Positions 17,584-52,189 of a DNA stretch of 64,000 bases are shown in pieces. Location: contig JAYRXE010000037.1 in assembly GCA_041917695.1 (NCBI GenBank), positions 370,582 to 434,581 of the forward strand, in the 5' to 3' direction. The first letter of the stretch is position 1. Every line of letters starts with the position of its first letter. The DNA comes from Minisyncoccota bacterium. GTDB lineage: Bacteria > Patescibacteriota > Minisyncoccia > UBA6257 > GWB1-50-10. The notes below the pieces were generated by a model. It saw nothing but the letters and a program-made list of their open reading frames with translations. It was not told the DNA's origin and made no database searches. Position numbers and translations under genes: made by a program.

Positions 17584-17621
17584 TGCTGAAATCCTTTCTT
17601 ATTAAGTTGTTAAATAATTTT

Positions 17622-17659: not shown

Positions 17660-17986
17660 TCTCTAAGTGATTTTTCGTATTGTTTAAGCGGTCCTACAAA
17701 AATCACGGCTGAATACAAAGCGATTGGTGTGATTCGTCCAAATGGAAAAAGACACCCCAAGTTTCGGCGTTGCGTAGCACGTATTCATGTGATTTTTGTT
17801 CAACTCTTTCATGCGTATATGATACATATATTGTGCATTTTGTCAATTTTTTTCGGCTTCTGAACTCTGCATTACTTGGCTGAGCATCTGGAATGGCCAA
17901 GCGAGGAAAAAGTGCAAAAACTACTATTCAAGAATGGTGGTTTTTCTATCGAGGGTTAGATACTTCACCCTAATAACTTCTTAATC

Positions 17987-19457: not shown

Positions 19458-19496
19458 AAGATCTTTTTGACCCTGGGGTACATACGCAGCATATTT

Positions 19497-20195
19497 TTAC
19501 CCGTTGTGGTCTGCTGGCAAATCAATATCCTTAATTCTGTTCGCAACGTTCGTCTCATGAATAATCTCTACCCACATCACTTTCGGGGAAGGGAGCGTGA
19601 CAATTTCAAGTCCTGCCCCAAGGATCTTAGAGTGATTATACTGGAGAATAGTATAATCACGAGAAGCTATCATTGAAAGGAAATGGTTGTCTTTTCTAAG
19701 ATAGGCATATCGTTTACCGGCCTTTTCATCCAACTTTTCACCCTTTTCAAAGGTTAAAACACATTTGCGAAGATTGCCTTTCGCGTACCCCTGAACGATA
19801 TCTACATATTTTGAATTTAAAATATCATCGTTATCAATCCTAGATGTAATGAACCACTCATTGTCATATTTGTTTTCAGAGACAAAACTGGCGAAATCAA
19901 AAAATTCGTTATCATCAAAATATAAGTCAATAAACATGTACACCTCCTTCAATGTCCGGATTCTTTCTTTAAAGACTTCAGGGGTCTGCTTGTGGAAAAG
20001 TATTATCCATTGGAAATTCTGGGATGTCTGGCTCTGAAGCGAAGGAATCGTGTATTGCTCAAAAAGACGGAAGCGCTCCGATAAATAATCTGGATCCAAG
20101 ATTAAATCCATTGGATTGCGTTCTGGATCTCTCGGACTACAACCAAATTTTTTCCGTATATTAAATCTGGTTAATACAAAATGTTTATATTCCAT
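19497..20195 (-). CDS. putative glycosyltransferase (rhamnosyltransferase-like family)
   Basis: N-terminal HFVLTRFNIR and ITSRIDNDDIL resemble the Rhamno_transf/GT-A-like family. The assignment is tentative. Confidence 0.4.
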   Translation of the reverse strand: MEYKHFVLTRFNIRKKFGCSPRDPERNPMDLILDPDYLSERFRLFEQYTIPSLQSQTSQNFQWIILFHKQTPEVFKERIRTLKEVYMFIDLYFDDNEFFDFASFVSENKYDNEWFITSRIDNDDILNSKYVDIVQGYAKGNLRKCVLTFEKGEKLDEKAGKRYAYLRKDNHFLSMIASRDYTILQYNHSKILGAGLEIVTLPSPKVMWVEIIHETNVANRIKDIDLPADHNG

Positions 20196-20235
20196 GGTAA
20201 AAATGAAACTTGTTCGAATGCTGGGGTACCCTCTT

Positions 20236-20763
20236 TCATATGCGTGAATGGTTGGTCATATTTTGCCGCCGCAAAAGCTTTAAGGCCATTTTGTGAGAAT
20301 CATCTGAGTAGGTAGATTGAACGCATTCCTCGATAACATACGTGAAAAATCCCGCATCAAAGGCATCAAAGGCCGTAGCGAGCACGCAATCCTCAGTATC
20401 TAATCCTACGATATGCACCTCCCTTATTTTCTTACTTTTCAAAAAAGCGGTCAGCTTCTTATTCCCTTGGAAGGCCGACCTCGTATCCTTTTGAACCTTG
20501 AAGGACTTATAGGGCTTTAGAGCCGTGGCAATGGACTCCACGGTCTCTGTATACCTTCCTTTCGGGCAAATCCATTTCTGCTGTTTTTTCCACAGGGAAC
20601 CCTTTTCGGCGTGAAAATTCACCTCAACATACGCATCGTATTTTACCGAATCTAGAAGTTTTAAAATATTCTTAACGATATAACCATTCCCTCTATTCAA
20701 GAATGAATCTTGTACATCCACGACAATAAGAGCCTTTTTGCGAGAATTTTCGGAAAATTTCAT
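20236..20763 (-). CDS. isochorismatase-family cysteine hydrolase
   Basis: ALIVVDVQ (catalytic Asp), K.., VHIVGLDTEDCVLATAFDAFDAGF (catalytic Cys) form the D-K-C triad arrangement. Confidence 0.8.
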   Translation of the reverse strand: MKFSENSRKKALIVVDVQDSFLNRGNGYIVKNILKLLDSVKYDAYVEVNFHAEKGSLWKKQQKWICPKGRYTETVESIATALKPYKSFKVQKDTRSAFQGNKKLTAFLKSKKIREVHIVGLDTEDCVLATAFDAFDAGFFTYVIEECVQSTYSDDSHKMALKLLRRQNMTNHSRI

Positions 20764-20804
20764 GTTGGCTCTTAATTCTTCATTATCTTACGAGATTGAT
20801 ATGA

Positions 20805-21608
20805 TTATTTCCTATCATCATCAAATAATTCATAGAAGGCAACAACGCTGAAAGGGCCCACAAAGCCCACAAAGAATAACTCTTCCCAGGGTATAGGATT
20901 GAACCCGAAAAAATTGATGGGCGGAAGAAAATAAACCCCAGTAAATACCCATTGGTTGAGAAATGTTGCGGTAATTTCAAAGAAAAAAGTGATGGCGAAA
21001 AAGTACGCTACAAGAGATAATGCTCGACGAAGAAACTGCGGAAAATGCCACAGAAAAATTAACGTGGGAAGAGCGAAGAAAACAGTTCCAAGAATCAAAT
21101 AAGTGTATGGCCCCTCCCACACAAAAAGATGCTTCCCACCTGATGCAAGAATCAAGAAAAAGGCGCTTAATACGAATAATGCAATAGAAATGAAATACCA
21201 GAGGCGCTTATCCGCCAATTCACGCTTCCCTTTATCGAGCATGATTTCATAGCCGACAACGAGCGTGAAGACGCCGCTCGCCATCCAGAAAAAATCCTCG
21301 ATGGGAATAACTCCGAGAAACCTCGATGGAAAAAGGCTATACGGCACATACCATACGCCGCTTGTGGTACCGATATAATCGATGATAATGGCAAAAGGTA
21401 ATGAAATGATGAACGTAAAGATTGCTCCTTTCGCTACTTGCCACAGCCGTCCAAAACGGAGGATTAAATAAATTCCTGGGAGGCTATAAAACAGGAAAAT
21501 AGAAAGAATATACGGGGCGTGAAATACAAGGGACACTAAGGAGCTTAAGAAAGGTAAAAGCGCCAACACGAAAAAATCGTATACGCTTAGACGCTTCAAA
21601 ATCTCCAT
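20805..21608 (-). CDS. integral membrane protein, hypothetical
   Basis: 7-8 TM helices, aromatic-rich; no confident family. Confidence 0.45.
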   Translation of the reverse strand: MEILKRLSVYDFFVLALLPFLSSLVSLVFHAPYILSIFLFYSLPGIYLILRFGRLWQVAKGAIFTFIISLPFAIIIDYIGTTSGVWYVPYSLFPSRFLGVIPIEDFFWMASGVFTLVVGYEIMLDKGKRELADKRLWYFISIALFVLSAFFLILASGGKHLFVWEGPYTYLILGTVFFALPTLIFLWHFPQFLRRALSLVAYFFAITFFFEITATFLNQWVFTGVYFLPPINFFGFNPIPWEELFFVGFVGPFSVVAFYELFDDDRK

Positions 21609-21680
21609 GCCTTTATTCTATGAGTAAAAGAAAATGGAGGAAAGCGACCCTCCTCGGGCGCGAGAACTCAGCTCGACTTG

Positions 21681-21695
21681 GCTGGGGAGCAGGGA
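21681..21695. repeat. 15-bp duplicate of tRNA-Gln 3' end (gctggggagcaggga)
   Basis: Identical to 21846-21860, which is the 3' acceptor/T-stem of the tRNA. It is followed by an 82-bp unrelated insert and then ttcgaatcccc, a diverged T-loop-like segment. Confidence 0.7.
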
Positions 21696-21846
21696 AATCT
21701 TACGTCGCTTCGCTCCCTGAAACCCAGCGGTTTCAGGGCATCCGCTACGGGAAAACTCCCGTTTCCCCGACCCCCTTCCCGTTCGAATCCCCTCTATTCC
21801 ACATCAAAGCAGAAACACCGGCATAAAGCTGGCGTTTCTGTTTTTG

Positions 21847-21917
21847 CTGGGGAGCAGGGATTCGAACCCCAATACTCGCCTCCAAAGGGCGATGTCCTAC
21901 CATTAGACGACTCCCCA
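21847..21917 (-). tRNA. tRNA-Gln (anticodon TTG)
   Basis: Reverse complement folds as a cloverleaf: acceptor TGGGGAG/CTCCCCA (7 bp), D-arm GTCT-AATGGTA-GGAC, anticodon arm TCGCC-CTTTGGA-GGCGA (U33, anticodon UUG), T-arm with TTCGAAT loop, discriminator G. CCA is not encoded. Confidence 0.7.
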
Positions 21918-21987
21918 ATTAATCTAAATGTAATAAACTTTTTTCTCTAAAACTGGGGGAAAATTAGACCTGCCTGCGCAGGCAAGC

Positions 21988-22000
21988 GACTCCCCAATTA
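21988..22000. repeat. 13-bp duplicate of tRNA-Gln 5' end (gactccccaatta) within a GC hairpin
   Basis: Identical to 21909-21921. Embedded in ggggg-aaaattagacctgcctgcgcaggcaagcgac-tcccc, a minihelix-like hairpin. Confidence 0.65.
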
Positions 22001-30710: not shown

Positions 30711-31094
30711 ATGAAAGCATCAGGGATCACGCTCCAAACAAGGATACCCACCGGCGAAACTCCCGTTCCGGCATTTTGCAGGGATTGCACCTTCGGGCCG
30801 AACGGCGTGCAGAGCTGTGCTCAGCTTCGCAAGCACCTCGAGGAGGATGGCGAAAAACCGTATTCAACATCCCCCAATGAAGTTCCGGAATGTTTTGAGA
30901 ATTCTTCCACCGGCCCGAAACGATTGTGTGCCGTATGCGCGTTCGGACCCAACTATGAAAATAATTGCGCCTATCTTGAATATGGGTACGATATTCCGAT
31001 GGCGGAAAATGGCATCTGCACCGCCTTTTCAGAAAAAACCTTCCACAAGGATTTTGTGCTATACGGAAAGAACACTCCCCACGTTCAGGCTTAA
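30711..31094 (+). CDS. small Cys-rich protein with duplicated CxxCxFGPNx(4-5)C module
   Basis: CRDCTFGPNGVQSC and CAVCAFGPNYENNC repeats; no family recognised. Hairpin terminator at 31110-31137. Confidence 0.45.
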   Translation: MKASGITLQTRIPTGETPVPAFCRDCTFGPNGVQSCAQLRKHLEEDGEKPYSTSPNEVPECFENSSTGPKRLCAVCAFGPNYENNCAYLEYGYDIPMAENGICTAFSEKTFHKDFVLYGKNTPHVQA

Positions 31095-31109
31095 TACGCA
31101 TTCATACTA

Positions 31110-31137
31110 AAACCCCCGCATGGGGGTTTTATTTATT
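31110..31137 (+). terminator. rho-independent terminator
   Basis: aaacccccgca-tgggggtttt followed by atttattt. Confidence 0.7.
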
Positions 31138-32881
31138 TAGTCTTTTTGGCAATGCGCCGCACTTTCTTCTTTGTCGCCTGTTCCGCAGCGGAAAGGCTTT
31201 TTTGGAGCTTCGTCCGTATCCGCTCCTCTTCCCGCGTGAGATCGCGCTTGGTCCGCACGCCATCAAGGGTTTTTACGGCAGACGCTACATCCCGCGCCAC
31301 TCCCTGGAAAATCGTATGGATATCGGTATCCGTATCCTCAAGAATACCCGACGCGTGGCGTTTCAAGACCGCTGCATGCCGGAGGAAACGGTTCACGAGG
31401 AGCGTGAAGAGAAGGAGACAGGCCGCGATAATGATGCCAATCGTAAGATATTGGACCAAACGGCTTCCGAACTTTGCGAGGAACGGCGCGTGGACACCGA
31501 CCGTCACGGCTTCGGTAAGAGCGCTTTCCTCCCCGGCATCGTTTACGGCTTTAAACCGGAACGTGTACGCGCCTTCCCGAAGTTTCTCGCTGAAAACAAA
31601 CGTGAATTTCCCTTCAGTATCCGCAGTCGTGCGCTCGATCTTCAGGTTTTCACCGTTCCAATCCGTATAGGCCTCAATCGCCGCTCCGGGCACCGTTTCG
31701 CCGCGAATGGCGAGGAGCGTATCGGCATACATTTCCTTCGGATAATCCGTAACTTTCGGCGTCGGCAAGCCTTCCGTTTCGAATTCCGCGAATGCCGATG
31801 CGTAATTGCCGGCCTTGTCTACTGCGCGCATCACGAGGACGTGCCGTCCCGGCGAAAGCGAGGGAGTCTCATAGCGGTGGTCGCCGTTGTCGCTCCAGGT
31901 GCTTGTCGCCCCGCCGTCTATCTGGAATTCATAATGATCGATGCCGGAGACGGTATCGGACGCACTCACGAGGAATGCCCTCCGCGAACGCGAGACCGGC
32001 TTCTGCGGATCCTCGACGATGGAAACGGTCGGTTTTTCCGCATCAATCCTGAGCGAGAAATGCTCAAGAGGACCCCATCCGGAGGCCGTACGGGCCTGAG
32101 CGTGGAAATACCATATTCCATTGCTCAAATCGGCTATTTCGCGGGAGGATATCGGCGGTTCGTAAACGCTGGTCGGCGTACTCTTCGGCGACGTATCGGC
32201 AAGAAGCCTCACTGCGGTCGCGCCTCCGGGCAATTCCCACGACAGTTTCGCCACCGTCGATGCGTACCATTTGGACGGATCGGGATGCGTCACTGACGTT
32301 ATTTTCAGAGCGCGGGAAGAAGAAGCCGGCGTGGGAACAGACTCGGTCTTTTTCGGCTCAGGTTCCGCAGGCGCCTCCGTTTCGGGAGTTTGAGAAACCG
32401 CCGTTATGCGTACCGATGCAGGAGCCGTACCCGTCAGAATATTCGTGCCTTGGCCGTCATTCGCAAGAACGCTCGCGTTGGAAAAGCCGATGGTTCCCGA
32501 ACCTGCCGAGCGGGCGCGGAACGTTACCGCCATAATCTTCCCCGCAGAACCGGTATAGCCGGGGTTTAGAACAACGCCTTCAAACTCAGCGGTCCCTCCC
32601 ACATTTGAGTATGACGGGTCTTGCGCCCACAACGAGAATATTGAGCCCGCCTTCGATATGGACGTAACCTGGAAAAGGTCCGCAGGAAATGTGAGAACGC
32701 CCGACGCGGCATTCATTGCCTCAGCGGGCGTTGAGACGAGAACGGAAAGGGTGAACGTATCGCCCACCTCGACAGCTCGAGAAGCGGGAGAAAGACTGAG
32801 CGTCGCAGCGTAAGCGATTGCTATGGGAGAAAAAACTCCCGCAGTTAAAACAAAGACAACTAATACGGCAAAACGATTCAT
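31133..32881 (-). CDS. cell-surface protein with N-terminal cohesin-like domain and C-terminal TM anchor
   Basis: Signal peptide, then LSLSPASRAVEVGDTFTLSVLV...FSNASVLANDGQGTNIL (cohesin-like beta module), a Pro/Thr-rich linker, beta-rich repeats, C-terminal TM (LTIGIIIAACLLLFTLL) and a basic tail. Confidence 0.5.
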   Translation of the reverse strand: MNRFAVLVVFVLTAGVFSPIAIAYAATLSLSPASRAVEVGDTFTLSVLVSTPAEAMNAASGVLTFPADLFQVTSISKAGSIFSLWAQDPSYSNVGGTAEFEGVVLNPGYTGSAGKIMAVTFRARSAGSGTIGFSNASVLANDGQGTNILTGTAPASVRITAVSQTPETEAPAEPEPKKTESVPTPASSSRALKITSVTHPDPSKWYASTVAKLSWELPGGATAVRLLADTSPKSTPTSVYEPPISSREIADLSNGIWYFHAQARTASGWGPLEHFSLRIDAEKPTVSIVEDPQKPVSRSRRAFLVSASDTVSGIDHYEFQIDGGATSTWSDNGDHRYETPSLSPGRHVLVMRAVDKAGNYASAFAEFETEGLPTPKVTDYPKEMYADTLLAIRGETVPGAAIEAYTDWNGENLKIERTTADTEGKFTFVFSEKLREGAYTFRFKAVNDAGEESALTEAVTVGVHAPFLAKFGSRLVQYLTIGIIIAACLLLFTLLVNRFLRHAAVLKRHASGILEDTDTDIHTIFQGVARDVASAVKTLDGVRTKRDLTREEERIRTKLQKSLSAAEQATKKKVRRIAKKTK

Positions 32882-32897
32882 ATCACTCTTAAAAGAA

Positions 32898-33788
32898 TTA
32901 CGTTCGGTTACGCTTTCTTTTTATAGTACCATACCGCACCGCGAAGAATGCGATGATCCCGACGAGCAGTATCCATATGTACGGTGACGCGATAAGGTCA
33001 TCAAAGGCGAGACGCGGGTTTGTTCCCTTTTCAGCCGGTATCACAACCTCCGCGACATTCCCTTCGGCATCGTACGCCTTCAAAACCACGTCCGACGAGC
33101 GCGATTGGTCGTATAAGAGATACGGGCTTTGCGCCTCCGCGCACGGGCGCTTGCCTTCGCACACCTCGAAACGGCTTACGCCTGAATTTTTATCCTGCGC
33201 AACCCAGAGAAGGGCGTACGCCCCTCCGTAGAGATCGCTTTCCCGCACTATCAAAGAGGTGCCTATTTCCGGCGCATCGCGATCCCGAAGAGCCGCCACA
33301 TTGCCTTCCGCGCGCGCATCGTTTTTCACCGCAACAGAAACCGGAGCAAGGTAAAGACCCGTCGGCGTGCCTTTCCCGTCATTTATAAACGCTGCTCCAT
33401 TCTGCAACGACAATTCCCCGGAGGATTCGACGCCCCCCCGCACTACCGTGGAGAAAAGCTTCCCTTCGCTTCCCCGGTATCCTCCCGGTATCACGCCCGA
33501 GAACGAAAGCGCGCCGTCCCGGACGCGCGGATTTTCAACCCACAACGAAACGATGGAATTCCCCGTCGAAATTTGTGAAAAGGAAAGCGATGACGCCGGA
33601 TACGCAAGCGCGCCCTCAAATGCATTTACCCGCTCTCCTTCCGTGTCCAAAAACCACGAAACCTCAATTGACCCGCCGGGCGGAACCTCGACTAGAGCCG
33701 GGACGGAGTACAATCGTGCGGCCTCTGCAGGCAAAGCAAAAAGAGCCGCCCCCGCCAATAAAACCGACATAGAGAATAGCTTGTTCAT
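32898..33788 (-). CDS. cell-surface protein with cohesin-like domain and C-terminal TM anchor (paralog of previous)
   Basis: Signal peptide, then LYSVPALVEVPPGGSIEVSWFLDT...SLQNGAAFINDGKGT (same module as in the neighbouring gene), and a C-terminal TM plus RKRNRT tail. Confidence 0.5.
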   Translation of the reverse strand: MNKLFSMSVLLAGAALFALPAEAARLYSVPALVEVPPGGSIEVSWFLDTEGERVNAFEGALAYPASSLSFSQISTGNSIVSLWVENPRVRDGALSFSGVIPGGYRGSEGKLFSTVVRGGVESSGELSLQNGAAFINDGKGTPTGLYLAPVSVAVKNDARAEGNVAALRDRDAPEIGTSLIVRESDLYGGAYALLWVAQDKNSGVSRFEVCEGKRPCAEAQSPYLLYDQSRSSDVVLKAYDAEGNVAEVVIPAEKGTNPRLAFDDLIASPYIWILLVGIIAFFAVRYGTIKRKRNRT

Positions 33789-33796
33789 TTTCTCCG

Positions 33797-35017
33797 TTAT
33801 CCGGACCAGTTGTACGCCATGATGCTGAAATCGACAAGCGTCACTTTTCCATCGCCGTTCAAATCAACTTTTGCCGGCGGAGCGGAACGCTTGTACCAGT
33901 ATGCCAAGACGGAAAAGTCGATGAGGTTCACCTTCCCATCCCCTGAAACGTCGGACTTCCCCGCCTTCGTGGTTTTTGCCGCCAAGACGGTCTTATCGCC
34001 GACCTTAAACGCGAGCGGGGCACTTTGTTGGCTCACTGCTCCGGAGAGCGCGGATTTTGACCGCGCCGTATGGTCGCCGTCCTCGAGGACGCCGGTATTG
34101 AACGCATACAAGTACACGCCGTCCTTGTCCGCCTTGGCCGTACCAAAATGCTCTTCATCGGAACTCACGGTAAGCGTAATTTGGCTTTCGGGGGCGCTTT
34201 GCCCGAAAAGGGTTATAGTCTCTCCGCGCTTTACCTCAACCTTGTCGGCGCCGATGGTCGGCGCGATAAAAATACCCGAAACTTGCGTCGCCGCCCCCGC
34301 CGTAATGCTGATGGGAAATGTTGATAAGGATGACCGGTATCCGTTCTTGTCTTCGCCGTACACGGAGAAAATATAATTCCCTCCGCTCAAGTTCGATATC
34401 GAAATACTGAACTGGCCGTCGGTTCCCACGCGCGACGAACCCGCCACCGATCCGTCCTTCAAAACGGTGACGTCGCTTCCGGGATACGCCCGCCCGATAA
34501 GGGTAACGCTCGTCGTGGGAGGCGGTACGCTGTTTCCCCCGCTTCCGCCACCTCCTCCTCCACCCCCGCCTCCTCCGCCTCCTCCGCTACCGCCTCCACC
34601 CGTGCTCCCCGCACTCGTCGTTGCGCTTGCCTCATCCGACGACGTGCTCGAACCCGCATCATTGAAAGCGCGCACGCGATAAAAATACGTGGTCGAAGGA
34701 AGGAGTCCTGTTCGGGTGTAGCTCGTGGCATTCGCGGGACGCGAGTCTATTTGCGTGAAAAATCCTCCGCTCCCCACTTTTTCTTCTACGTAAAAACCGT
34801 CTTCGTTGTTCGAATTGTCACTCCAACTCAAATTTATTTGTGACGCGGAAACCGACGTCGCGACAAGCGATGTCGGTTCAAGCGGAAGAACGACGATGCG
34901 AAGCGTGAGCTCGAAACCATCCGAAACCGTCTGGGCATGCGAAAAGAAAGGGAAAGCGAGTCCTATGCAAAACCCAAAAACAAGGAGTAGCGCGTTTTTT
35001 CTGTAAAACGGGCTCAC
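33797..35017 (-). CDS. surface protein: signal anchor, FN3 domain, poly-Gly tract, Ig-like repeats, two C-terminal dockerin repeats
   Basis: FN3: PTSLVATSVSASQINLSWS...YFYRVRAFNDAGSS. (G)n run of ~25 Gly. Dockerin repeats DVSGDGKVNLIDFSVLAYWY and DLNGDGKVTLVDFSIMAYNW. Start set at GTG 35017, just after the upstream gene's stop; the track ORF extends to 35122. Confidence 0.65.
   Translation of the reverse strand: MSPFYRKNALLLVFGFCIGLAFPFFSHAQTVSDGFELTLRIVVLPLEPTSLVATSVSASQINLSWSDNSNNEDGFYVEEKVGSGGFFTQIDSRPANATSYTRTGLLPSTTYFYRVRAFNDAGSSTSSDEASATTSAGSTGGGGSGGGGGGGGGGGGGGSGGNSVPPPTTSVTLIGRAYPGSDVTVLKDGSVAGSSRVGTDGQFSISISNLSGGNYIFSVYGEDKNGYRSSLSTFPISITAGAATQVSGIFIAPTIGADKVEVKRGETITLFGQSAPESQITLTVSSDEEHFGTAKADKDGVYLYAFNTGVLEDGDHTARSKSALSGAVSQQSAPLAFKVGDKTVLAAKTTKAGKSDVSGDGKVNLIDFSVLAYWYKRSAPPAKVDLNGDGKVTLVDFSIMAYNWSG
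34540..34610. repeat. CCN/GGN simple-sequence tract encoding poly-Gly
   Basis: cctcctcctccacccccgcctcctccgcctcctccgctaccgcctccacc on + strand. Confidence 0.8.
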
Positions 35018-35022
35018 GAATC

Positions 35023-35922
35023 CTATTTCTTCACCCGAACGATCCTGAATTTCTTTTTGAGATTTCCCAAGCCGAACCAAACAAGCAGTCCGAACGCCAC
35101 GACGGCAAGCGCTTCCTGCCATGGAAAGGCGAAGAAGGTTATTGTCTTCGTAACCGCTCCGCCGGGCATGGAGGACGTGAGGGTTGCCGTGAGAGGACCA
35201 AAGGCATAACGGCCCGCCACCTGCGCCTCAAAGGTACGCGTGTGGCCGGGAAAAACGATACGCGGCTCTATTGCAACCGATTTTTCGGGATAAAAAGGGC
35301 CTTTAATCGAGATGGAGCTCTCGGGATTGAAATGCGTATTACCCGTGTTTTCAAGTTTTGCCGTAAAAGAAAAGGGTCCGTGCGAAACATACGACGCGGG
35401 GCCAGTGAAAGAATCTATTTTACCGGTCTTTACGGTCGCGCCCGGAACTTCGATGAGCATCACCGTACCGACGCGCCCCGAAATGCCCACTCCCCCGTTC
35501 GGACCTGAAATACCGCGGAAAAGTATGGAACCGTAATGGCCTCCCGGCTCTGCATTTGCGGGAACATTAACCGTAAACGGAATTTGGCGGCGTTCCTGGG
35601 GTCCGAGCGTGAATTCTGTGCGGTCGATGGAAACCCACGAGGAAATGCCGTGCGGTATTTCCATGTCGATAAGATCTATCGAGCCTTCGTCGCCGCCGGC
35701 GATATTCTCGACCTCTGGATGCACGCCGATTGAGAAATCATTCGGATTGATGACGGTAATGGTGTCGGCATACGATTCGCCCTGAGCCACCGTCACATTG
35801 AACTTCACCGGATACAGCGAGATGCCCACCTGGGCGTTGCCAACCCCGGGGAATAAAAGGCACCCACCAAGAAAGAGGGCGCCAAATGATAAAACTGAGA
35901 AAATTCCAACGTGTGATTTCAT
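35023..35922 (-). CDS. secreted beta-rich protein with C-terminal TM anchor, hypothetical
   Basis: Start moved to ATG 35922 (MKSHVGIFSVLSFGALFLGG signal). C-terminal TM ALAVVAFGLLVWFGL plus KKKFRIVRVKK. Confidence 0.5.
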   Translation of the reverse strand: MKSHVGIFSVLSFGALFLGGCLLFPGVGNAQVGISLYPVKFNVTVAQGESYADTITVINPNDFSIGVHPEVENIAGGDEGSIDLIDMEIPHGISSWVSIDRTEFTLGPQERRQIPFTVNVPANAEPGGHYGSILFRGISGPNGGVGISGRVGTVMLIEVPGATVKTGKIDSFTGPASYVSHGPFSFTAKLENTGNTHFNPESSISIKGPFYPEKSVAIEPRIVFPGHTRTFEAQVAGRYAFGPLTATLTSSMPGGAVTKTITFFAFPWQEALAVVAFGLLVWFGLGNLKKKFRIVRVKK

Positions 35923-36005
35923 GTTCCTTAGTAAGAAGGATGATACCCGAATCTCTGCAGTCCGTCGAATCAAAACAACCGCTTTCGCGGCTGTTTTTTT
36001 AGCGA

Positions 36006-36677
36006 TTACGGATTGGTGATAGCGGTCACCGTGATGGTTCCGGTGTAGTTCGTGGCCTGCTGGGTGGCCGGCGCATCGGCACGGACCTTCATGACGACCG
36101 TCTGCGCGGAACCGGAATATGTGCTCGTTGTTGCAACATTCTGGGACGTCGATGTCGGAAATCCTGCGTACTGCGCCCCTGCGGCGCCGTCGGTATCGTT
36201 CGGGCCCCACCACGTCGTGCTATAAAGGCCGGCACCGGTTCCCGTCTGCATGACGCGGAAATGGAGGTTTGAACCGATGAGGTTTGTGGTCGTCGCATTG
36301 CCGTTACCCGTCGCGTTCCACGCGGTGTAATCGGGGAAGGTGATGGTGCCGGACGCAATCGTCGAGGTGACGCTCACGCGGCTGATACGGAGATTCCAAC
36401 CCGTCGCCGAGTTCGTCGAAACCGTCGCGGAAGACGTTGCGGAGACCGCAGAGCCCGGAGTAAGCGACCCGAGGGCGATGGTCGTCGTTGAGAGGCTCAG
36501 GGTAATCGTTTGGTTTACCGTGACGCTAATCGTCTGGTTCGTAGACGTCGAAACCTGCGCCAAGGCGTTCGGCATGAAAATCGAGGCGGGGAGCGAAAAA
36601 GCCCCCATCAAAAGCCCCGCGATGCCGACCACGACCACCGAAAATGCAAACCCTTCCAAAGAGATAAAATCTTTCAT
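36006..36677 (-). CDS. secreted Thr/Ser-rich beta protein, hypothetical (paralog pair A)
   Basis: Signal peptide. Shares ITFPDYTAWN, RADAPATQQATNY and C-terminal TAITNP with the next gene. Confidence 0.5.
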   Translation of the reverse strand: MKDFISLEGFAFSVVVVGIAGLLMGAFSLPASIFMPNALAQVSTSTNQTISVTVNQTITLSLSTTTIALGSLTPGSAVSATSSATVSTNSATGWNLRISRVSVTSTIASGTITFPDYTAWNATGNGNATTTNLIGSNLHFRVMQTGTGAGLYSTTWWGPNDTDGAAGAQYAGFPTSTSQNVATTSTYSGSAQTVVMKVRADAPATQQATNYTGTITVTAITNP

Positions 36678-36731
36678 GGGCTTATTATAACACTTTCACG
36701 TAACGACATGCCTTCTTCCCTTGTGGATAAT

Positions 36732-38075
36732 TTAGGGGTTCGTTATCGCCGTAAACGTGACAGTTCCTGCATAATTCGTCGCTTGCTGGGTCGCCGGCGC
36801 ATCGGCGCGGTATTGCACGGTCGTGACGGTCGTTCCCGAGTTCGATGACGTGGCATTTGCGATGGTTTGCGAGCTCGTCGGCATCCCTGCAAAGATAGCC
36901 GTGCCGTTCGTATCATTCGTCCCCCACCAAATACCGCAATAGCTCGAGTCCGTCCCGGTTTGCCGTACCCTGAAGGAAAAAACCGCTCCCGGGGCCGTTG
37001 AGCCGTTTCCTTGGCCCGCCGTGCATCCGGAGCCCGGATTCCACGCCGTGTAGTCGGGGAACGTAATCGTGGAACTCGCGAGAGTCGAGGTGACGCTCGT
37101 CCGGTTGATCTTCAAACTATAGCCGTTCGTCCCGCCGCTTATCGTGACAGACGCCGTTGTCGTCGCCGTTACCGCTGTGCCCGGCGTAAACGAACCGAGC
37201 GCGACGGTTGAACTTGAAAGCGTGAGGGTAATGGTCGGCGAACCTGCGCCCGAGGAAAGCGTCACCTGCGGATATTGCGAATAAGTGAAATTCGCCGCTG
37301 AGCCTGCATTCGTTACGCGGAAGCAATACGTTGCGGACGAGGTCGCCTGCGCGTTTGCTTGCACCGCATATTCAAGCTCAAGGAATGAATCGCTGGGGAG
37401 CGAAACCGCCGCCGCTTGGCTTCCCGCATCCTTCACGCCGCCGTTTGCCGCGAGAAACGCGTAATTCGAATCCGTCACGCCGCCCGAGCCTACGGAAATA
37501 TTCGTCGTGTTCGCGCCGTCGGTGAGGTTTGCCGTGTTCACCATGCTCCAGTCGGCATTCGTACCGACATCCACCCAGTTTGAGACGGCACTGCAGGTCG
37601 TCACCAGAAATCCGTACTCAAGCCGGAACTGCTGGGTTGAATATCCTTTTATCGTCCCTCCTTCGTTCGAAATCCCGACACGAATGCGTGTCGTGGTTGC
37701 TTTAGCAAAATTCGTGAGCGCCGCGTTCTCAACTCCGCCCGTCGCTGAGGTTGCCGCCGACTCCGAACCGTTGTCGTTCCTGAAATGAAAGCCAGTCTGC
37801 GTATAGTCGGGCTTTACCGGCTGAAAGAGCGCGCGGAGGAAACCAGCGACCGCGCGAAATGTCGTCGATGTTGAAAGTCCCGGAGCGTCAGAAAAACCAT
37901 TCTGCAGTATCCGGAAGGTTGTCGAACTTGAAAAACCCGCGGTCGAACCTATTTCCTGCCGGACAAAAAAATTCGTCGAGGACGCATCAAGCGCGAACGC
38001 GGTGCGGATGCCGAAGAGAAGCGCGGCGCAGAAAAAAAATACTGCACCGAGACGCGCCGAAGTGCGTTTTTTCAT
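36732..38075 (-). CDS. secreted Thr/Ser-rich beta protein, hypothetical (paralog pair B)
   Basis: Signal peptide. Same conserved blocks as 36006-36677 (ITFPDYTAWN ... YRADAPATQQATNYAGTVTFTAITNP). Confidence 0.5.
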   Translation of the reverse strand: MKKRTSARLGAVFFFCAALLFGIRTAFALDASSTNFFVRQEIGSTAGFSSSTTFRILQNGFSDAPGLSTSTTFRAVAGFLRALFQPVKPDYTQTGFHFRNDNGSESAATSATGGVENAALTNFAKATTTRIRVGISNEGGTIKGYSTQQFRLEYGFLVTTCSAVSNWVDVGTNADWSMVNTANLTDGANTTNISVGSGGVTDSNYAFLAANGGVKDAGSQAAAVSLPSDSFLELEYAVQANAQATSSATYCFRVTNAGSAANFTYSQYPQVTLSSGAGSPTITLTLSSSTVALGSFTPGTAVTATTTASVTISGGTNGYSLKINRTSVTSTLASSTITFPDYTAWNPGSGCTAGQGNGSTAPGAVFSFRVRQTGTDSSYCGIWWGTNDTNGTAIFAGMPTSSQTIANATSSNSGTTVTTVQYRADAPATQQATNYAGTVTFTAITNP

Positions 38076-38081: not shown

Positions 38082-38519
38082 CTAGCGGAGATACGAAACG
38101 ATCGGATCATCCGCGTCGAGGAATTTCCAATAGAGCACCATCGAGCGGTTGATGAAAAGAAACGACGTGCGCTTCACCGGCACGAGTTGCGTGGCGCTTT
38201 GGCCGCTCGCAGTACCGGAGAGCGAAAATTCCATCGACGAAGACTGCGTTTCGGATGAAGAAGGCGTGAATTTTTCAAGCACGTACACGTCGCTCAAGCC
38301 CACGACGTCGTCACCCATCCCGCTCAGATGCCCAAAAAGGATTTCGCCGTTCGCAAGCTGTACCGAGGCCCACTCCTTGGGAAGCGGGCTGTGCATGCGC
38401 ACGTAGAGGACGGTACGTTCCGCACCGAGCCAAACGGCGCCGGCAACGATAAGAAACAAGAGGACGAGCACCCACGGGCTTCGCGCCTTTCTTTTTATGC
38501 GGATAATATCTATCGCCAT
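38082..38519 (-). CDS. membrane-anchored hypothetical protein
   Basis: N-terminal TM WVLVLLFLIVAGAVWL; no family. Confidence 0.4.
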   Translation of the reverse strand: MAIDIIRIKRKARSPWVLVLLFLIVAGAVWLGAERTVLYVRMHSPLPKEWASVQLANGEILFGHLSGMGDDVVGLSDVYVLEKFTPSSSETQSSSMEFSLSGTASGQSATQLVPVKRTSFLFINRSMVLYWKFLDADDPIVSYLR

Positions 38520-38525: not shown

Positions 38526-38996
38526 TTATCTTGGATTATACCACGTCCCCTCTTCGCCCTGGTCGGCAAAAAAGTAGTAATATTCCCCGTCGCCGAAATT
38601 CTTGAGTGATTCAGCCGAAAATCCATACTGGAACGCCTTCCCCGATTCGCACGGAAGCGCGCGGTTCACGACGGCACGCGATACATCCTCGCGGTAGTCG
38701 ACCGACGCGGGATATACGAGGAGCGTCGCATAGGTCGCATGGCATCCGTCTTCAAGCACGACGCCTGTTGCCCCGCTTATCTTCCCGTCCGCGTACGCGA
38801 TGCGGCGATAGGTATCGGGAGAAGGCATGTTTCGCAAGACCGGATCGAGTATCGTGCGGGAAGATACAACCTTTTTTACCTCCGCGGTCTCTTCGGATTT
38901 TTTTTCTTTTCCGAAAAAAAACAAATAGCCCCCGGCGAGGATGAGGACGACGCCTAATGCGATGACGCGATAGAGCCGTTTCGAATCCCCTACCAT
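38526..38996 (-). CDS. membrane-anchored hypothetical protein
   Basis: Start moved to ATG 38996 (MVGDSKRLYRVIALGVVLILAGGYLFFF). The upstream part of the track ORF is GC-skewed Arg/His-rich and overlaps the next gene. Confidence 0.4.
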   Translation of the reverse strand: MVGDSKRLYRVIALGVVLILAGGYLFFFGKEKKSEETAEVKKVVSSRTILDPVLRNMPSPDTYRRIAYADGKISGATGVVLEDGCHATYATLLVYPASVDYREDVSRAVVNRALPCESGKAFQYGFSAESLKNFGDGEYYYFFADQGEEGTWYNPR

Positions 38997-39502
38997 TTGC
39001 GCACGACAAGCTCCACCATGATGTCCGAAATGACGTTCCAATAATGCTGCTGGGCAAACTGCCGGGCTTCCTCGGATTTCTTGTCCCACGGCGGATTGAA
39101 GAACACCACCATCTGCGAAACGTCGAAATGCGATTTGATAGGATAATGGTCGAGCTTGTTCGCCGCGCGCCAATCTTTGTTGAAATAGAGCCACGTGGCC
39201 TCCGAGAGCGTCCGCGTGTGCGTGGGATCCTGCCATGCGCGGATGGAGGTGTAATACGGCCCGATGATGGTTACTTTCGCCCCGTCGGCGCAAATGCGCC
39301 AGATTTCGTCCATGAACTTCATGAGGTCATGCGTGTGCTCGGCATAGTGGCTTACGTGGGCTTCTTCCACGGAATTATCTTCAAACGGCGCCCAGGGAAA
39401 TTGTTCCAGGTCCCACACGTAATCGACGCCGGGTCCCGGTGCGATGTCGACTCCCTTGAATCCGGCGCGTTTGTTCTGTCCGCAGGCGATATCGAGCTTC
39501 AT
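38990..39502 (-). CDS. class I SAM-dependent methyltransferase
   Basis: MKLDIACGQNKRAGFKGVDI (motif I LDxxCG) ... ADGAKVTIIGP (motif III-like). Confidence 0.65.
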   Translation of the reverse strand: MKLDIACGQNKRAGFKGVDIAPGPGVDYVWDLEQFPWAPFEDNSVEEAHVSHYAEHTHDLMKFMDEIWRICADGAKVTIIGPYYTSIRAWQDPTHTRTLSEATWLYFNKDWRAANKLDHYPIKSHFDVSQMVVFFNPPWDKKSEEARQFAQQHYWNVISDIMVELVVRKW

Positions 39503-39515
39503 GACGTTAAATAGG

Positions 39516-40505
39516 TTAGTTGTTGATCACGTAATCGTACGCGGCTTTGGAAATTTCCGCCATGAAAGACGCAGCGCGCTTCTCATCTCCGCCGTTCGAA
39601 CCCACGCAGAGAATATAATGCCGGTTCGAAGCATATACGATACCGCAATCGGAGAACGTCTCATCGTTTGCCGCAATACCTATCTTATGTGCGACGGAGA
39701 CCCGCTCCGGGACTCCTGCAACGATCTTGTCATTGAAGCTACTACTCGCCAAATACCCGAGTATCTGTTCGGAATGCTCAGGGGAAACATATGTCGCATT
39801 GTAGAGGGCGAGAAACATGTTCGAGAGCGTCTTTAAATTGATCTTCACGTAAGTGGGCGCGGTATTCTCACCAAACCCTGGCACACCCTCCCCATAGGCC
39901 CACCCAAATTGCGCATATACATCCGCTAACGGGTCGGCGATGCCCGTGTTCATCAAAATGTTCTGCACGGCAATTGCGGCGGTATTATCCGATTGCTCCA
40001 ACATAATCCGTACCAATTCCTCAAGGCTGAAATCGTGGTCAGCTCCATTTTTATATAAATCACCGAAATCCTTATTCAAATCAAGTTCGCTAAGAGTGTA
40101 TCGATCGTTTAAGTGTAACTTTCCCTCCTCAACAGCCTTCATCGCCGACATCGCGAGCGGCACCTTCACGGTGCTTGCCGCAGTGAACTCTTCCCGTTCA
40201 TTCAGGCCCGTCCACGCACCGTTATTGAGATAGAGGAAATAAACATAGGTCTTTTGGGGATACCTCGCCTGTATCTCGGCAAGCGCCTTCCTTAGCGGTC
40301 CGAAATTAATGATGAAATGCTTGTTAAGATTCGACATGACGGTCGGATTGACGAACGCAAGATCTCCGCGCGCATTTTCACGCTCCAAAACATCTTTTGC
40401 CGAATCAGGGCTGTCCTTTTTTCCTGAAAAAGTTTTTCCCAAAACAAAGCTCGCCGTAGCAACGGCTAAAATTATCGGAACCGCGATGAAAATTTTTTTT
40501 ACCAT
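39516..40505 (-). CDS. class A beta-lactamase-like serine hydrolase (secreted)
   Basis: Signal anchor; ASTVK (SxxK), SDN, KIG (KTG-like) in the canonical order and spacing. Confidence 0.7.
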   Translation of the reverse strand: MVKKIFIAVPIILAVATASFVLGKTFSGKKDSPDSAKDVLERENARGDLAFVNPTVMSNLNKHFIINFGPLRKALAEIQARYPQKTYVYFLYLNNGAWTGLNEREEFTAASTVKVPLAMSAMKAVEEGKLHLNDRYTLSELDLNKDFGDLYKNGADHDFSLEELVRIMLEQSDNTAAIAVQNILMNTGIADPLADVYAQFGWAYGEGVPGFGENTAPTYVKINLKTLSNMFLALYNATYVSPEHSEQILGYLASSSFNDKIVAGVPERVSVAHKIGIAANDETFSDCGIVYASNRHYILCVGSNGGDEKRAASFMAEISKAAYDYVINN

Positions 40506-41218
40506 ACGATATCCATTTGCGCGTCGTAATGCCCCACTCTGACACGCGTATCACACGCCACCTTATACCCTAGTTTCCGTATCTTTTCGAAGAAATACAG
40601 GTCTTGCGTATATGCCTTGATGCCCCGTTCGTGGTCCCATTCATTAAACGTCTTAAACCAGGGTTTTTCAATCCGCGTGTCCCTAAAAAGCTCCATTTTG
40701 AAAAGCGTGAAGCCCATCCCAAGCCCATTGCACTCTTGAATTTCCTCCTGCGGCACTTGCGGACGGAAGTTCATCTCACTATCTTTCGGATCGCCATATA
40801 TCATCGGCTGGCCGCCCTCTCCCTTCGTCCAATAGAGACCACCAACGGCGGCGTAGTCGTCGATGTGTTCGTATAATTTGATAAGCCCGTCGGGCGGAGG
40901 GATATTATCCTCTTCCAAGGTAAGCACGTATTTCCATTTGGAAAGCTCGGGGTTTCCCAAAATAGTTTCGATGGTTGAGCTATAGGCCTCCCCAACCTCC
41001 ATGCCGATTGCAAATATCCTCGTGAATTTCTGGTTCATGGGCGCGATCATACCCATCCACGCTTGGGTGACTTTCGCAGGAATCATTCCGCGCGTGGGAA
41101 CGATGCAGACGGTCGAGAGGTCGCGATACCCCTTCCCTTTTTCCAATCGCTCAATGCTCTCCGAAAAATTAGCATTATGAGTCCCTTGGTAGTTTTGGAT
41201 GACGATTTGAGGCTTCAT
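40499..41218 (-). CDS. putative glycosyltransferase-like protein
   Basis: CIVPTRG ... LEEDNIPPPD ... QDLYFFEKIRKLGYKV is loosely GT-A-like. Tentative. Confidence 0.35.
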   Translation of the reverse strand: MKPQIVIQNYQGTHNANFSESIERLEKGKGYRDLSTVCIVPTRGMIPAKVTQAWMGMIAPMNQKFTRIFAIGMEVGEAYSSTIETILGNPELSKWKYVLTLEEDNIPPPDGLIKLYEHIDDYAAVGGLYWTKGEGGQPMIYGDPKDSEMNFRPQVPQEEIQECNGLGMGFTLFKMELFRDTRIEKPWFKTFNEWDHERGIKAYTQDLYFFEKIRKLGYKVACDTRVRVGHYDAQMDIVW

Positions 41219-41233
41219 ATGATATTCATTACT

Positions 41234-42841
41234 TTACCAAACCAAATTGATGTACGGTTTCTGTTGCTGACTCGACCCGCCGGTGCTTGTAATGACGGAT
41301 GTATGCACCGACGCAGGCATGATCGGCGTCAGGAAATCTCCTACGGCGGATGTCGAGGAAAATATACCGTTCAGCCATTGAGAATTCACGTTGAAAGTCG
41401 ATGCGGTGGCAAAATTTCCCGCTGTATTTATAGACCCAGAAAAGCGCGCCACGCTGTTTGCCGGCATGACCGCTACGCTCGACGAGCGGTTCGTTTGCGC
41501 GACCACGAGCCAATACTGACCAGCCGATAACGAGTCTCCTCCATTGGTGTACAACGGTATTTTGCGAATGCCGCTTACGATGGTCGAAATATTGCCAGCG
41601 CTCGAACTTGAGTTTGCATTGCTGTCAGTCCCCCAGTAAAAGCGATGGCTTTGGGCGGTAACACTATTCTGGCTCACTTCATTCCGCCACATGAATGAAG
41701 ACAGGCGGGACAAGGCGGTGCCGCCATTCAAGGTATAAATGCCCACCATATACGCAATCGATTGGGAGCCTGTTCCGGCCACGGTAGCAAAGTTGGCAAT
41801 CATATTTACGCTTCTAAACGTGAGATTCTGCAATACCTGAAGGGGGCCTACATAATAGGACGCAGTGATATTAGTGCCGGCTCCCGTCGCGCCGGTATAT
41901 TGCGAAGAAGTCGCCAAGTAAGCGGGGACATGCGGCCAATGGGAAACAGTTGCTCCTCCCCCGCCAGCGTTTACGCTTGCCGTGATCGTCGAGCCGTTCA
42001 TGCCGAAGGTGACGCCGTTTGAGTTTGAAAAGACGATGTTCCCCGCCGTTACCGGCGCGCCCGCGTTCACCCCGATGCCGGCAATGGTCGTCGAGGAGTT
42101 TGAGATGACATTGATGACGCCGTTTTCGCAAACAAGTGCGCGCGTCAAAGTCGAGTTGTACCACAGGGCGCCGTTATTCGTGCATGCCCCGCCCAAACTG
42201 TCCGCGGTGTTTGCAACGTCAAGTGAGAGTACCGTTTGGCTTCCGGCGCCGATGCCGCTCCCGGTGCCGATCTGCACCTTGGTAGAGGTAGGCGTGCGGA
42301 GAGCCGCGCCGTACACGCTTTCCGCGGTTTGCGCCCAGGCGTTCGACGTTATCTGCTGGCGCGGGGTCAGGTCTTCCCAGCTGCCGGAGCACGTGGAGGT
42401 GACGGTATTCACCGCCACTTGAAGGTACAAAGTCGACGTCGTCAGGAAATCAAGACCCGAGAGATCGTCCATGCGCCCGACCTGGTCGCTAAAGACGCCG
42501 TCCGTAACGGTCGTCGTCGTATTCGTCGGCGTCCCTGCCGGCCATACCTTATTCCCTCCGCTTGCCGCGTCATAAATGGAATAGCGGAAACAATAGAGCG
42601 TGCCGGTTCCTCCGAGCGGGTTCCCCGACGTGTCGGTCAGCCTCCCCTGGTACGAAATAAGGTTCGGCACGCCGGCTGCGGACTGCGCCTCGGGCGGCGC
42701 GAAGATGCGTCCCGCGAGCGAAAGATACAGGAAAAACGTAAAAATACCCTCGAGCGCAACCAAGAAAAGCGCGAAAGCGGCGCCCCTGCGCTTCGTATTG
42801 CGGATTTTCACCCCCTGGATGCTGTCGACGGAAAAACTCAT
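41234..42841 (-). CDS. large Thr/Ser/Gly/Asn-rich surface protein with N-terminal TM anchor
   Basis: TM AAFALFLVALEGIFTFFLYLSLAG, then a low-complexity beta-rich ectodomain. Confidence 0.45.
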   Translation of the reverse strand: MSFSVDSIQGVKIRNTKRRGAAFALFLVALEGIFTFFLYLSLAGRIFAPPEAQSAAGVPNLISYQGRLTDTSGNPLGGTGTLYCFRYSIYDAASGGNKVWPAGTPTNTTTTVTDGVFSDQVGRMDDLSGLDFLTTSTLYLQVAVNTVTSTCSGSWEDLTPRQQITSNAWAQTAESVYGAALRTPTSTKVQIGTGSGIGAGSQTVLSLDVANTADSLGGACTNNGALWYNSTLTRALVCENGVINVISNSSTTIAGIGVNAGAPVTAGNIVFSNSNGVTFGMNGSTITASVNAGGGGATVSHWPHVPAYLATSSQYTGATGAGTNITASYYVGPLQVLQNLTFRSVNMIANFATVAGTGSQSIAYMVGIYTLNGGTALSRLSSFMWRNEVSQNSVTAQSHRFYWGTDSNANSSSSAGNISTIVSGIRKIPLYTNGGDSLSAGQYWLVVAQTNRSSSVAVMPANSVARFSGSINTAGNFATASTFNVNSQWLNGIFSSTSAVGDFLTPIMPASVHTSVITSTGGSSQQQKPYINLVW

Positions 42842-42844
42842 GGA

Positions 42845-43480
42845 TTATTTTTTCAATAAAAGGCCCCGCGCCGTGCGGTGGGTTTCTTGATATGCATTCG
42901 AAAACTCTACCGCAAGCTCGCGTTCCGCGGGAACACGGGACGCGTGAAAATGCGCATTATGATGGAGCGCGAACTCCAAAGGCGCCGTCACTTTCATGAA
43001 ATAGGCATCCACTTCCTTGCCGTCCTTGCGCGCCACGGACCACTGCCACCCGAAATCAAGCAAATGGTCGCCAAACGGCAAAGGCTGGGAAACAGCCGTA
43101 TACTGCTCGCCTATCGGTATGATGTCCTGGGTCTGATAGAAGACTTCGAAATTAAAACCGTAGCCTTGGAATTTCGTACGGCGGTTTTCCGTGAGCCGCG
43201 TGAGAATCCGCGCCGCTTCGGCTGGGAGCGGCGAAGAAGCGGGTTCGCGCGCTTCAAGGTCTTCGAAGCGGATGCGATGTTCCTCGCACGCGATTTGAAG
43301 CCCCAGAGCGGGAAGATCGATGACCTTCATGCGAAGCATCGGATCGTCGGCAAGCTGCATCCCCCGCCCCCGATCGCCCTTGAAAAGCTCAACCAACTCG
43401 CTTGGCTCGGGCACTAACGACACGCCCCGTTCAAAAACGAATATCATGTTTGCCTTGTGGAGCGATTCGGAGCGTATCAT
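42845..43480 (-). CDS. hypothetical protein
   Basis: Soluble, no family recognised. Confidence 0.4.
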   Translation of the reverse strand: MIRSESLHKANMIFVFERGVSLVPEPSELVELFKGDRGRGMQLADDPMLRMKVIDLPALGLQIACEEHRIRFEDLEAREPASSPLPAEAARILTRLTENRRTKFQGYGFNFEVFYQTQDIIPIGEQYTAVSQPLPFGDHLLDFGWQWSVARKDGKEVDAYFMKVTAPLEFALHHNAHFHASRVPAERELAVEFSNAYQETHRTARGLLLKK

Positions 43481-52164: not shown

Positions 52165-52189
52165 TTTTAAACCCGGATAATTCCGGGTT

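Follow-up and report, generated by a model that had tools for sequence, protein, structure and literature searches.

A 64,000-nucleotide stretch of a Minisyncoccota bacterium genome (contig JAYRXE010000037.1, positions 370,582 to 434,581 of the forward strand; hereafter the window) carries, from 31.1 to 38.5 kb, seven tandem minus-strand open reading frames (ORFs), named A to G here, which include two cohesin-fold membrane proteins, a dockerin protein and a homolog of WxL-interacting proteins. Their boundaries in the ORF list lie at or near those reported in a first-pass annotation of the same DNA, made from the sequence alone. The genes and the signal that follows them are:

38082-38519, minus strand: gene G, 145 aa, with a membrane segment at the N-terminus, separated from F by 6 nt
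36732-38075, minus strand: gene F, 447 aa, the large protein of a small/large pair
36006-36677, minus strand: gene E, 223 aa, the small protein of the pair
35023-35922, minus strand: gene D, 299 aa, WxLIP-like
33797-35017, minus strand: gene C, 406 aa, dockerin protein, start uncertain (the ORF can be extended to 35122, and the Joint Genome Institute (JGI) product has 424 aa)
32898-33788, minus strand: gene B, 296 aa, with a cohesin-type module
31133-32881, minus strand: gene A, 582 aa, with a cohesin-fold module
31108-31131, no strand assigned: GC-rich hairpin TAAAACCCCCGCATGGGGGTTTTA with T runs on both sides, in the gap that separates the stop codons of A and of the convergent ORF 30711-31094

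Intergenic gaps across this region are 5-83 nt, and the segment that starts near 31.1 kb and reaches about 38.1 kb, perhaps 38.5 kb, forms a single co-directional, tightly spaced operon, (G)-F-E-D-C-B-A, which the hairpin likely ends as a bidirectional terminator. By a simple hydropathy scan, all seven proteins have a signal-like N-terminus, and only A, B and D have a C-terminal helix. The six co-directional genes F-E-D-C-B-A probably encode a cell-surface complex. Near-identical copies of the locus occur in three JGI metagenomes, and homologs carry labels such as Candidatus Paceibacterota and Minisyncoccia. For comparison, stretches encoding the cohesin module were sought in one genome per GTDB species; at least 568 were found and 80 loci were kept, in which gene order was read from six-frame ORFs searched with hidden Markov models (HMMs). 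A homolog of G occupies the same position in the few loci where one is detectable (L046, L081, L082 and L056), and G is possibly part of the same transcription unit.

The two most downstream genes encode proteins with the following parts:

31133-32881, minus strand: A, with signal peptide, cohesin-fold module, Pro/Glu-rich linker, three beta domains, membrane helix and a cytoplasmic tail of about 85 aa
32402-32809, minus strand: cohesin-fold module of A, aa 25-160 (AlphaFold2 and Foldseek)
31394-31471, minus strand: membrane anchor helix of A, aa 471-496 (hydropathy scan)
31136-31393, minus strand: cytoplasmic tail of A, downstream of the anchor helix
32898-33788, minus strand: B, with signal peptide, cohesin-type module, small beta domain, membrane helix and short basic tail
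33324-33719, minus strand: second cohesin-type module, in B, aa 24-155 (match to the module HMM)
32928-33011, minus strand: membrane helix of B (hydropathy)

The first-pass annotation had described A and B as signal-peptide proteins with a cohesin-like N-terminal module and a C-terminal membrane anchor, an architecture that is confirmed. The AlphaFold2 model of residues 1-171 of A (predicted local distance difference test, pLDDT, 94.8) is a nine-stranded sandwich composed of strands only after the signal helix, and all of its 50 top Foldseek matches in the PDB are cohesins, mostly of type I (E 6.7e-10 to 7.6e-5, probability 1.00, template-modelling (TM) score normalised to the target up to 0.77), so that the module has a cohesin fold and is not a generic Ig or CARDB domain. 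The fold model was made for the module of A, and B was assigned through its alignment to A (35% identity over 135 aa of the N-terminal modules, E=7e-18) and its match to the cohesin-module HMM (E=1.7e-24). Neither protein matches Pfam Cohesin (PF00963) at E<=1, and direct sequence searches of the PDB with the two modules return no cohesin. A profile search retrieves 101 relatives of the module, many of them named 'cohesin domain-containing protein' or carrying PF00963; the Pfam model is matched by 31 of 61 close family members themselves (best E=4.8e-12), and the family profile matches solved R. flavefaciens ScaB cohesins at E=0.004. The assignment of A and B as cohesins is therefore based on the predicted fold, on homologs matching Pfam and on the match of the family profile to solved cohesins.

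Each of the two proteins holds one cohesin according to the cohesin-module profile, which matches A and B only within the window. A also matches Pfam Big_13 at 42.9 bits and an NCBIfam OmpL47-type domain at E=4e-8, under the cut-off of that model. A sub-threshold sequence match to PDB 9rwu_A ('Pilus assembly protein'; E ~0.35), obtained from both the A cohesin module and the family profile, is probably due to chance. The tail of A-type proteins (about 85 aa, median 87 aa in 75 homologs) is charged and helical-looking, with recurring motifs that include ...GL(S/T)xxE(E/K)xI...L..SL..AE..., which may point to a cytoplasmic partner or to transmembrane signalling. Elsewhere, two cohesins in one protein were seen only where a B-type protein is fused in frame to an A-type one, as in the public proteins P0172, P0173 and P0183 (799-903 aa), in the order cohesin, small domain, membrane helix, short basic loop, A signal segment and full A; read-through or a gene-calling artefact may account for them, and the fused chain would remain workable in its membrane topology, suggesting joint action of B and A.

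Gene C encodes the dockerin protein, with parts as follows:

33797-35017, minus strand: C, with signal peptide, FN3 head, Gly/Ser tract, two Big_6 Ig domains and C-terminal dockerin, without a membrane anchor
34625-34879, minus strand: FN3 head (Pfam fn3)
34535-34609, minus strand: Gly/Ser tract of 25 residues, aa 137-161 (read from the sequence)
33800-33955, minus strand: dockerin, aa 355-406 (Pfam Dockerin_1)
33893-33952 and 33806-33865, minus strand: the two calcium-loop-plus-helix repeats of the dockerin, starting at aa 356 and 385

The FN3 domain, the poly-Gly tract of about 25 residues, the Ig repeats and the pair of dockerin repeats read in C by the first-pass annotation are all recovered, by Pfam matches to the 406-aa reading (fn3 45.3 bits, Big_6 46.5 bits) and by a tract and repeats lying where expected. 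Pfam Dockerin_1 (PF00404) matches residues 355-400 at 36.3 bits, above its gathering score of 22.9; of the two Pfam families proposed earlier, the dockerin model thus passes its threshold in C, and the cohesin model, as described above, is not matched directly by A or B. The repeats, DVSGDGKVNLID followed by FSVLAYWY and DLNGDGKVTLVD followed by FSIMAYNW, stand in tandem, each a 12-residue loop and then a helix, and the dockerin is nearly symmetric. Loop positions 1, 3, 5, 9 and 12, the predicted calcium ligands, are D,S,D,N,D and D,N,D,T,D (D-x-S/N-x-D-...-N/T-x-x-D), so that both repeats appear canonical. Across the family, the loop consensus is D-x-N-x-D-G-x-V-N/D-L-V-D, and the dockerin always stands at the extreme C-terminus, with the consensus GDxNxDGRVNLVDFSIxAYWYKRxxPPxxxDLNGDGKVDLVDFSIMAYYWTG directly before the stop (ending in ...DLNGDGKVDLVDFSIMAYYWTG).

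Among 34 homologs of C, Pfam finds Dockerin_1 in 33, Big_6 in 32 and fn3 in five; the N-terminal head is variable and often Cys-rich, and the poly-Gly tract is retained in 60 of 72 homologs. Dockerin-type repeats occur in C only within the window. The dockerin protein SEML1_0315 of Ca. Southlakia, a cultured Saccharibacterium in which it is essential (PMC10633639), was considered as a member of the operon and rejected, since its gene (927 aa) stands alone and has no cohesin neighbours.

The gene directly upstream of C encodes a membrane-anchored protein of a different kind:

35023-35922, minus strand: D, with signal peptide, two Ig-like domains, membrane helix and basic tail

D matches Pfam WxLIP_PGBD (PF06030, DUF916) at E=6.3e-6 and 26.7 bits, just under the gathering score of 27.3, and the model is matched by nine of 34 D homologs. 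A profile of these 34 homologs matches PDB chains 9i25_C and 9i1y_A (E. faecium EfmWxLIP1; E=1.6e-6), with both domains included in the aligned profile positions 46-263, and by profile comparison D is identified as a homolog of the enterococcal WxL-interacting protein (WxLIP). Of the 63 loci that have C and extend 1.2 kb or more beyond it on the upstream side, ~47 carry a D homolog immediately upstream of C, and D-E-F represents a WxLIP-type module that is part of the same conserved locus as C-B-A. Highly expressed 'peptidoglycan-binding domain' proteins of cultured Paceibacteria (PMC10936435) were also considered as D homologs; the one inspected (PMX_810_sub_00350, 2079 bp) is not D-sized.

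The remaining two genes of the module form a small/large pair:

36006-36677, minus strand: E, with signal peptide and a single beta domain of about 180 aa ending in ...NYTGTITVTAITNP
37236-37991, minus strand: N-terminal domain of F, about 250 aa, without family match, behind the signal peptide
36735-37235, minus strand: C-terminal E-type domain of F, from its similarity to E

D, E and F had been recorded earlier as an anchored beta protein and a paralog pair and left uninterpreted; the anchor and the pair both stand, D now being recognised as a WxLIP homolog and E and F as small and large proteins with a C-terminal domain in common (56% identity over 173 aa, E=3e-44). F has no match in Pfam, and the 70 homologs of E are all unannotated. 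A small and a large ORF, the latter of up to about 1500 aa, precede D in most D-bearing loci and end, for example, in ...TEAGSYTATLTYTATANF or ...TQQATNYTGTITVTAITNP directly before the stop; hhalign joins the E family to two other such small/large families upstream of D in the Candidate Phyla Radiation (CPR), with probabilities of 95% and 88%. The same arrangement characterises WxL clusters, in which a WxLIP (DUF916 (PGBD)-DUF3324 (HBD)-transmembrane segment) accompanies a small WxL protein, consisting of the WxL domain alone, and a large one, which carries it C-terminally behind host-binding domains (PMC10599100).

The E/F domain could not be linked to WxL domains themselves. Pfam WxL has no match at E<=1 in 55 + 34 = 89 E/F-domain members; hhalign of the E/F domain against five annotated WxL domains, taken from Enterococcus, Bacillus and Levilactobacillus plasmids, gives a probability of 1.5% with the C-terminal motif alone aligned; jackhmmer did not reach annotated WxL domains; and the solved WxL chain 9i25_A is not in the Foldseek top 50 of the E model. 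As to Trp-x-Leu-type motifs, E has GWNL without the second WxL motif, and F has GYSL. Membership of the WxL family was rejected on the sequence searches and the architectural analogy kept: E and F may be regarded as positional and architectural analogues of WxL proteins, with a predicted pilin-like fold of weak resemblance.

The public annotation of the E gene is faulty in those JGI records in which gene calls split it (36006-36677; 7109-7793 in L001) into a 123-aa fragment, P0111, and add an antisense ORF of 107 aa. An E-type small protein also stands alone on the 829-kb contig of L006 (10001-10645), away from the D-C-B-A genes, where it adjoins an LTD-domain protein and lies near a type II/IV secretion ATPase gene; two E paralogs, P0125 and P0127, are found on this contig.

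The predicted fold of E raises an alternative that we consider unlikely, namely that E/F-type proteins are pilin-like subunits polymerising by donor-strand exchange into a surface fibre, with F as two-domain tip adhesin, E as shaft, D as membrane-anchored base or chaperone-like partner, and the cohesin-dockerin trio as an accessory anchoring platform. The best PDB folds for the E model (AlphaFold2, pLDDT 86) are indeed the TasA fibre and chaperone-usher-type structures (FimA, CfaB, Caf1, Csu pilins and the pilin domains of PapG and FimH), with Foldseek probabilities of 0.9-1.0 for many, but the E-values are weak (2.5e-3 to 0.1), TM scores are 0.3-0.55 and root-mean-square deviations 8-17 Å. 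Weak Pfam hints of SCPU, DUF4402 and Fimbrial in the E/F domain point in the same direction, as do the layout of F, head plus pilin domain as in FimH and PapG, and the mature N-terminus of E (TISVTVNQ), in which hydrophobic residues alternate with polar ones and which the monomer model leaves without structure. The C-terminal motif ...G.Y.xTxTxTA is one that we take to resemble the last strand of chaperone-usher pilins. Against a fibre, scans with Pfam and NCBIfam find no usher, PapD-type chaperone, sortase or SipW-like peptidase in the operon or the flanking genes scanned, and polymerisation would have to be assumed outright. A fibre of this kind would nevertheless be compatible with the two-module complex that we favour.

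The C-B-A part of that complex is widely distributed in the Patescibacteria (CPR). The 80 loci span Taylor-, Kaiser-, Magasanik-, Wildermuth-, Komeili-, Vogel-, Campbell-, Falkow-, Jorgensen-, Wolfe-, Staskawicz- and Brennerbacteria, and include Ca. Microsyncoccus archaeolyticus PMX.50 (L058), an archaeon-parasitising patescibacterium in enrichment culture; when 1.84 billion representative proteins were searched exhaustively, the cohesin-module profile matched 2169 clusters (50% identity) at E<=1e-30. About 70 of the 80 loci have C, B and A in this order and on the same strand, and 68 carry the C dockerin, the loci without C or B being mostly cut by contig ends; in every locus, no ORF other than C has this dockerin within 10 kb of the cohesin genes. 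Conservation peaks in the cohesin of A (54% mean identity to the window protein across 62 homologs, as against 21-42% for other regions of A) and in the dockerin of C (61%, as against 13% for the head). A C-terminal membrane helix is predicted by hydropathy in 75 of 80 A-type proteins (median tail 87 aa) and 64 of 65 B-type proteins (median tail 12 aa), and a hydrophobic segment in the C-terminal half in only one of 64 C-type proteins. Since the gene order recurs across related CPR loci, the cohesin-dockerin pairing looks functional, and synteny, the single dockerin carrier, the conservation of the modules and the presence of anchors on A and B and not on C lend strong indirect support to a cognate, membrane-tethered pair.

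Some loci are labelled as other phyla, for example Gammaproteobacteria and Methylomirabilis; at least one of them, L017, has gene sizes and scores close to those of the Kaiserbacteria locus, and these labels are probably labelling or binning artefacts. In eight loci without a D homolog (L015, L031, L042, L052, L055, L075, L083 and L085), C is preceded by a giant ORF (1500-2360 aa) and then a protein of about 140 aa that has ...KI(V/I)E(V/I)APLxIG... as a motif close to the C-terminus, and these two appear to be an alternative upstream 'cargo' module for the C-B-A trio.

Other observations leave the cognate pair less certain. A mirror-tree analysis (partial Mantel) gives r 0.085 between dockerin and A cohesin, which is not significant, and r 0.20 between dockerin and B cohesin, a value similar to that for the dockerin and a non-cohesin region of A; two cohesins face one dockerin in the locus; and other dockerin proteins may exist elsewhere in the genome, the view being limited to 64 kb. 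Together with the scores of A and B below Pfam Cohesin, this co-variation leaves some room for an alternative that we judge to be less likely still than a fibre, in which the cohesins of A and B bind something else (E/F, peptidoglycan, glycans or a host molecule) and the C dockerin either serves only as a terminal module stabilised by calcium or has its partner encoded elsewhere. Cohesin- and dockerin-like modules have been noted in many non-cellulosomal proteins of unknown partner (Peer et al. 2009, as cited in PMC9012536). Such an arrangement would, however, have to account for the strict adjacency of C, B and A in ~70 loci with exactly one dockerin gene each, for the joint high conservation of the two modules, and for a protein C without other means of staying on the cell. 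Finally, a true cellulosome-like system assembling polysaccharide-degrading enzymes on a scaffoldin, for which the cohesin fold and the type-I dockerin speak and nothing else, is extremely improbable and was rejected on domain content, as each protein has one cohesin and hence there is no multi-cohesin scaffoldin, the sole dockerin protein carries only FN3 and Ig domains, the operon and the flanking genes scanned hold no glycoside hydrolase or carbohydrate-binding module, and a single dockerin gene lies within 10 kb across the 80 loci, so that the 'cellulosome-like scaffolding' of the first-pass annotation overreaches.

These results lead us to favour, with fair confidence, a two-module surface complex of Patescibacteria, consisting of a C-B-A tether and an F-E-D module, each of which would anchor anchorless proteins to the membrane. 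A and B are predicted type-I membrane proteins, whose cohesin-fold domain lies outside after signal-peptide cleavage and whose C-terminal helix serves as anchor, A having in addition its cytoplasmic tail. C is a predicted secreted protein, and its C-terminal dockerin, through two EF-hand-like calcium loops, would dock onto the cohesin of A and/or B, keeping the two Ig domains, the flexible poly-Gly tract and the lineage-variable head (FN3 here) at the surface. By analogy with WxL clusters, D would retain E and F via their shared C-terminal beta domain, probably by beta-strand complementation, leaving the N-terminal domain of F outward as a binding head; the two modules may also contact each other. 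The cohesins, the dockerin, the Ig stalk and D are constant across loci, as opposed to the fast-evolving C head, F N-terminal domain and several unrelated-looking small/large families, a pattern that fits a conserved base with variable binding tips. Attachment of an episymbiont to its host is a plausible, if speculative, role for the complex.

A bolder reading, which we regard as doubtful, is that F/E-D-C-B-A represents a so far undescribed surface organelle, widespread in Patescibacteria and serving as a general host-attachment apparatus of ultrasmall episymbionts. Its base would be the two cohesin membrane proteins, one with a conserved cytoplasmic tail, holding a dockerin-tethered stalk, and a WxLIP-anchored, strand-complemented adhesin or fibre would be joined to this base, with small and large subunits that diversify rapidly.

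The surface-protein locus may be larger than the operon. The block upstream of it (38526-43480), syntenic with the operon in L005, L046, L081, L082 and L056, encodes a 156-aa protein ending in ...GTWYNPR, a methyltransferase-like protein of 170 aa, a beta-lactamase-2-like protein of 329 aa, a 239-aa protein without family match and a 535-aa protein with a weak match (E=7e-4) to the N-terminus of Bdellovibrio mosaic adhesive trimer fibres. Downstream of A, the convergent ORF 30711-31094 (plus strand, 127 aa) contains a pair of similar Cys-rich segments, CRDCTFGPNGVQSCAQL... and CAVCAFGPNYENNCAYL, is without a match in Pfam, and may encode a small duplicated zinc-ribbon-like protein. Elsewhere in the window, where G+C is otherwise about 0.55, the stretches 12000-22000 and 52000-54000 have values of 0.42-0.47 and may be acquired or otherwise atypical.

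Patescibacteria make up a large share of bacterial diversity, and the cultivated ones live attached to host cells; to our knowledge, the proteins at the CPR-host interface, beyond type IV pili, are mostly unannotated. No published description of the F-E-D-C-B-A operon was found in the literature searched, and many A and B homologs are already named 'cohesin domain-containing protein' by NCBI: the domains were known, the system was not. The locus offers a concrete and testable model, a putative calcium-dependent cohesin-dockerin tether whose gene order is fixed across many CPR classes, and it extends WxLIP-type surface modules well beyond the Lactobacillales and Bacillales. Its presence in Ca. 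Microsyncoccus archaeolyticus PMX.50, for which an enrichment culture is maintained, makes experiments feasible.

Four known systems invite comparison. With chaperone-usher pili and TasA the locus shares the best, though weak, fold match of E and the head-plus-pilin-domain layout of F, which recalls tip adhesins; it differs in having neither usher nor periplasmic chaperone among the genes scanned and in belonging to a single-membrane cell, and the likeness is at the edge of detection. As in the anchoring scaffoldins of Clostridia (OlpC/OlpA, ScaE-type), a single cohesin on a cell-bound protein would capture a dockerin-bearing partner, and the OlpC and OlpA cohesins (4dh2, 3ul4) are among the best fold matches of the A module. 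In contrast with these scaffoldins, the anchor here is a membrane helix and not SLH domains or a sortase, and the cargo is an FN3/Ig protein rather than an enzyme-loaded scaffoldin, with no glycoside hydrolases.

The likeness to WxL (Csc) clusters concerns the other half of the operon. By its published definition, such a cluster comprises one or more WxLIPs together with two or more WxL proteins in a span of four genes, and the WxLIP has been proposed to hold the WxL proteins via an inserted beta-hairpin (Hassan, Chaudhuri and Williamson, PMC10599100). The architecture of D, E and F is exactly that of a WxL cluster: D is a profile homolog of EfmWxLIP1 over both domains and shares its C-terminal helix, E is the common domain alone, and F has the same domain C-terminally behind an extra N-terminal one. 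However, the E/F domain is not detectably WxL and the second Trp-x-Leu motif is absent; the cluster occurs in Patescibacteria, outside the range of WxL proteins, reported almost entirely from Lactobacillales and Bacillales (PMC10599100); and it is joined to a cohesin-dockerin trio instead of an LPXTG protein.

The closest counterparts of the trio are the non-cellulosomal cohesin-dockerin pairs of Archaea, which bind each other (reviewed in PMC9012536). The pairs of Archaeoglobus fulgidus and of anaerobic methanotrophic (ANME) archaea have the same type-I-like cohesin fold (the A. fulgidus cohesin, 2xdh, is ninth in the Foldseek search, with a target-normalised TM score of 0.77), the same canonical dockerin with duplicated calcium loop, and likewise single cohesins, no attached enzymes and a function presumed to lie in assembly at the surface or between cells (PMC9012536). 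The locus described here differs from them in carrying its cohesins on two distinct membrane proteins with C-terminal helices, in the coupling of the operon to a WxLIP-type module, and in the organisation of the partner genes as a fixed three-gene operon that recurs across many lineages of Patescibacteria, where C-B-A would work like a minimal non-cellulosomal cohesin-dockerin tether.

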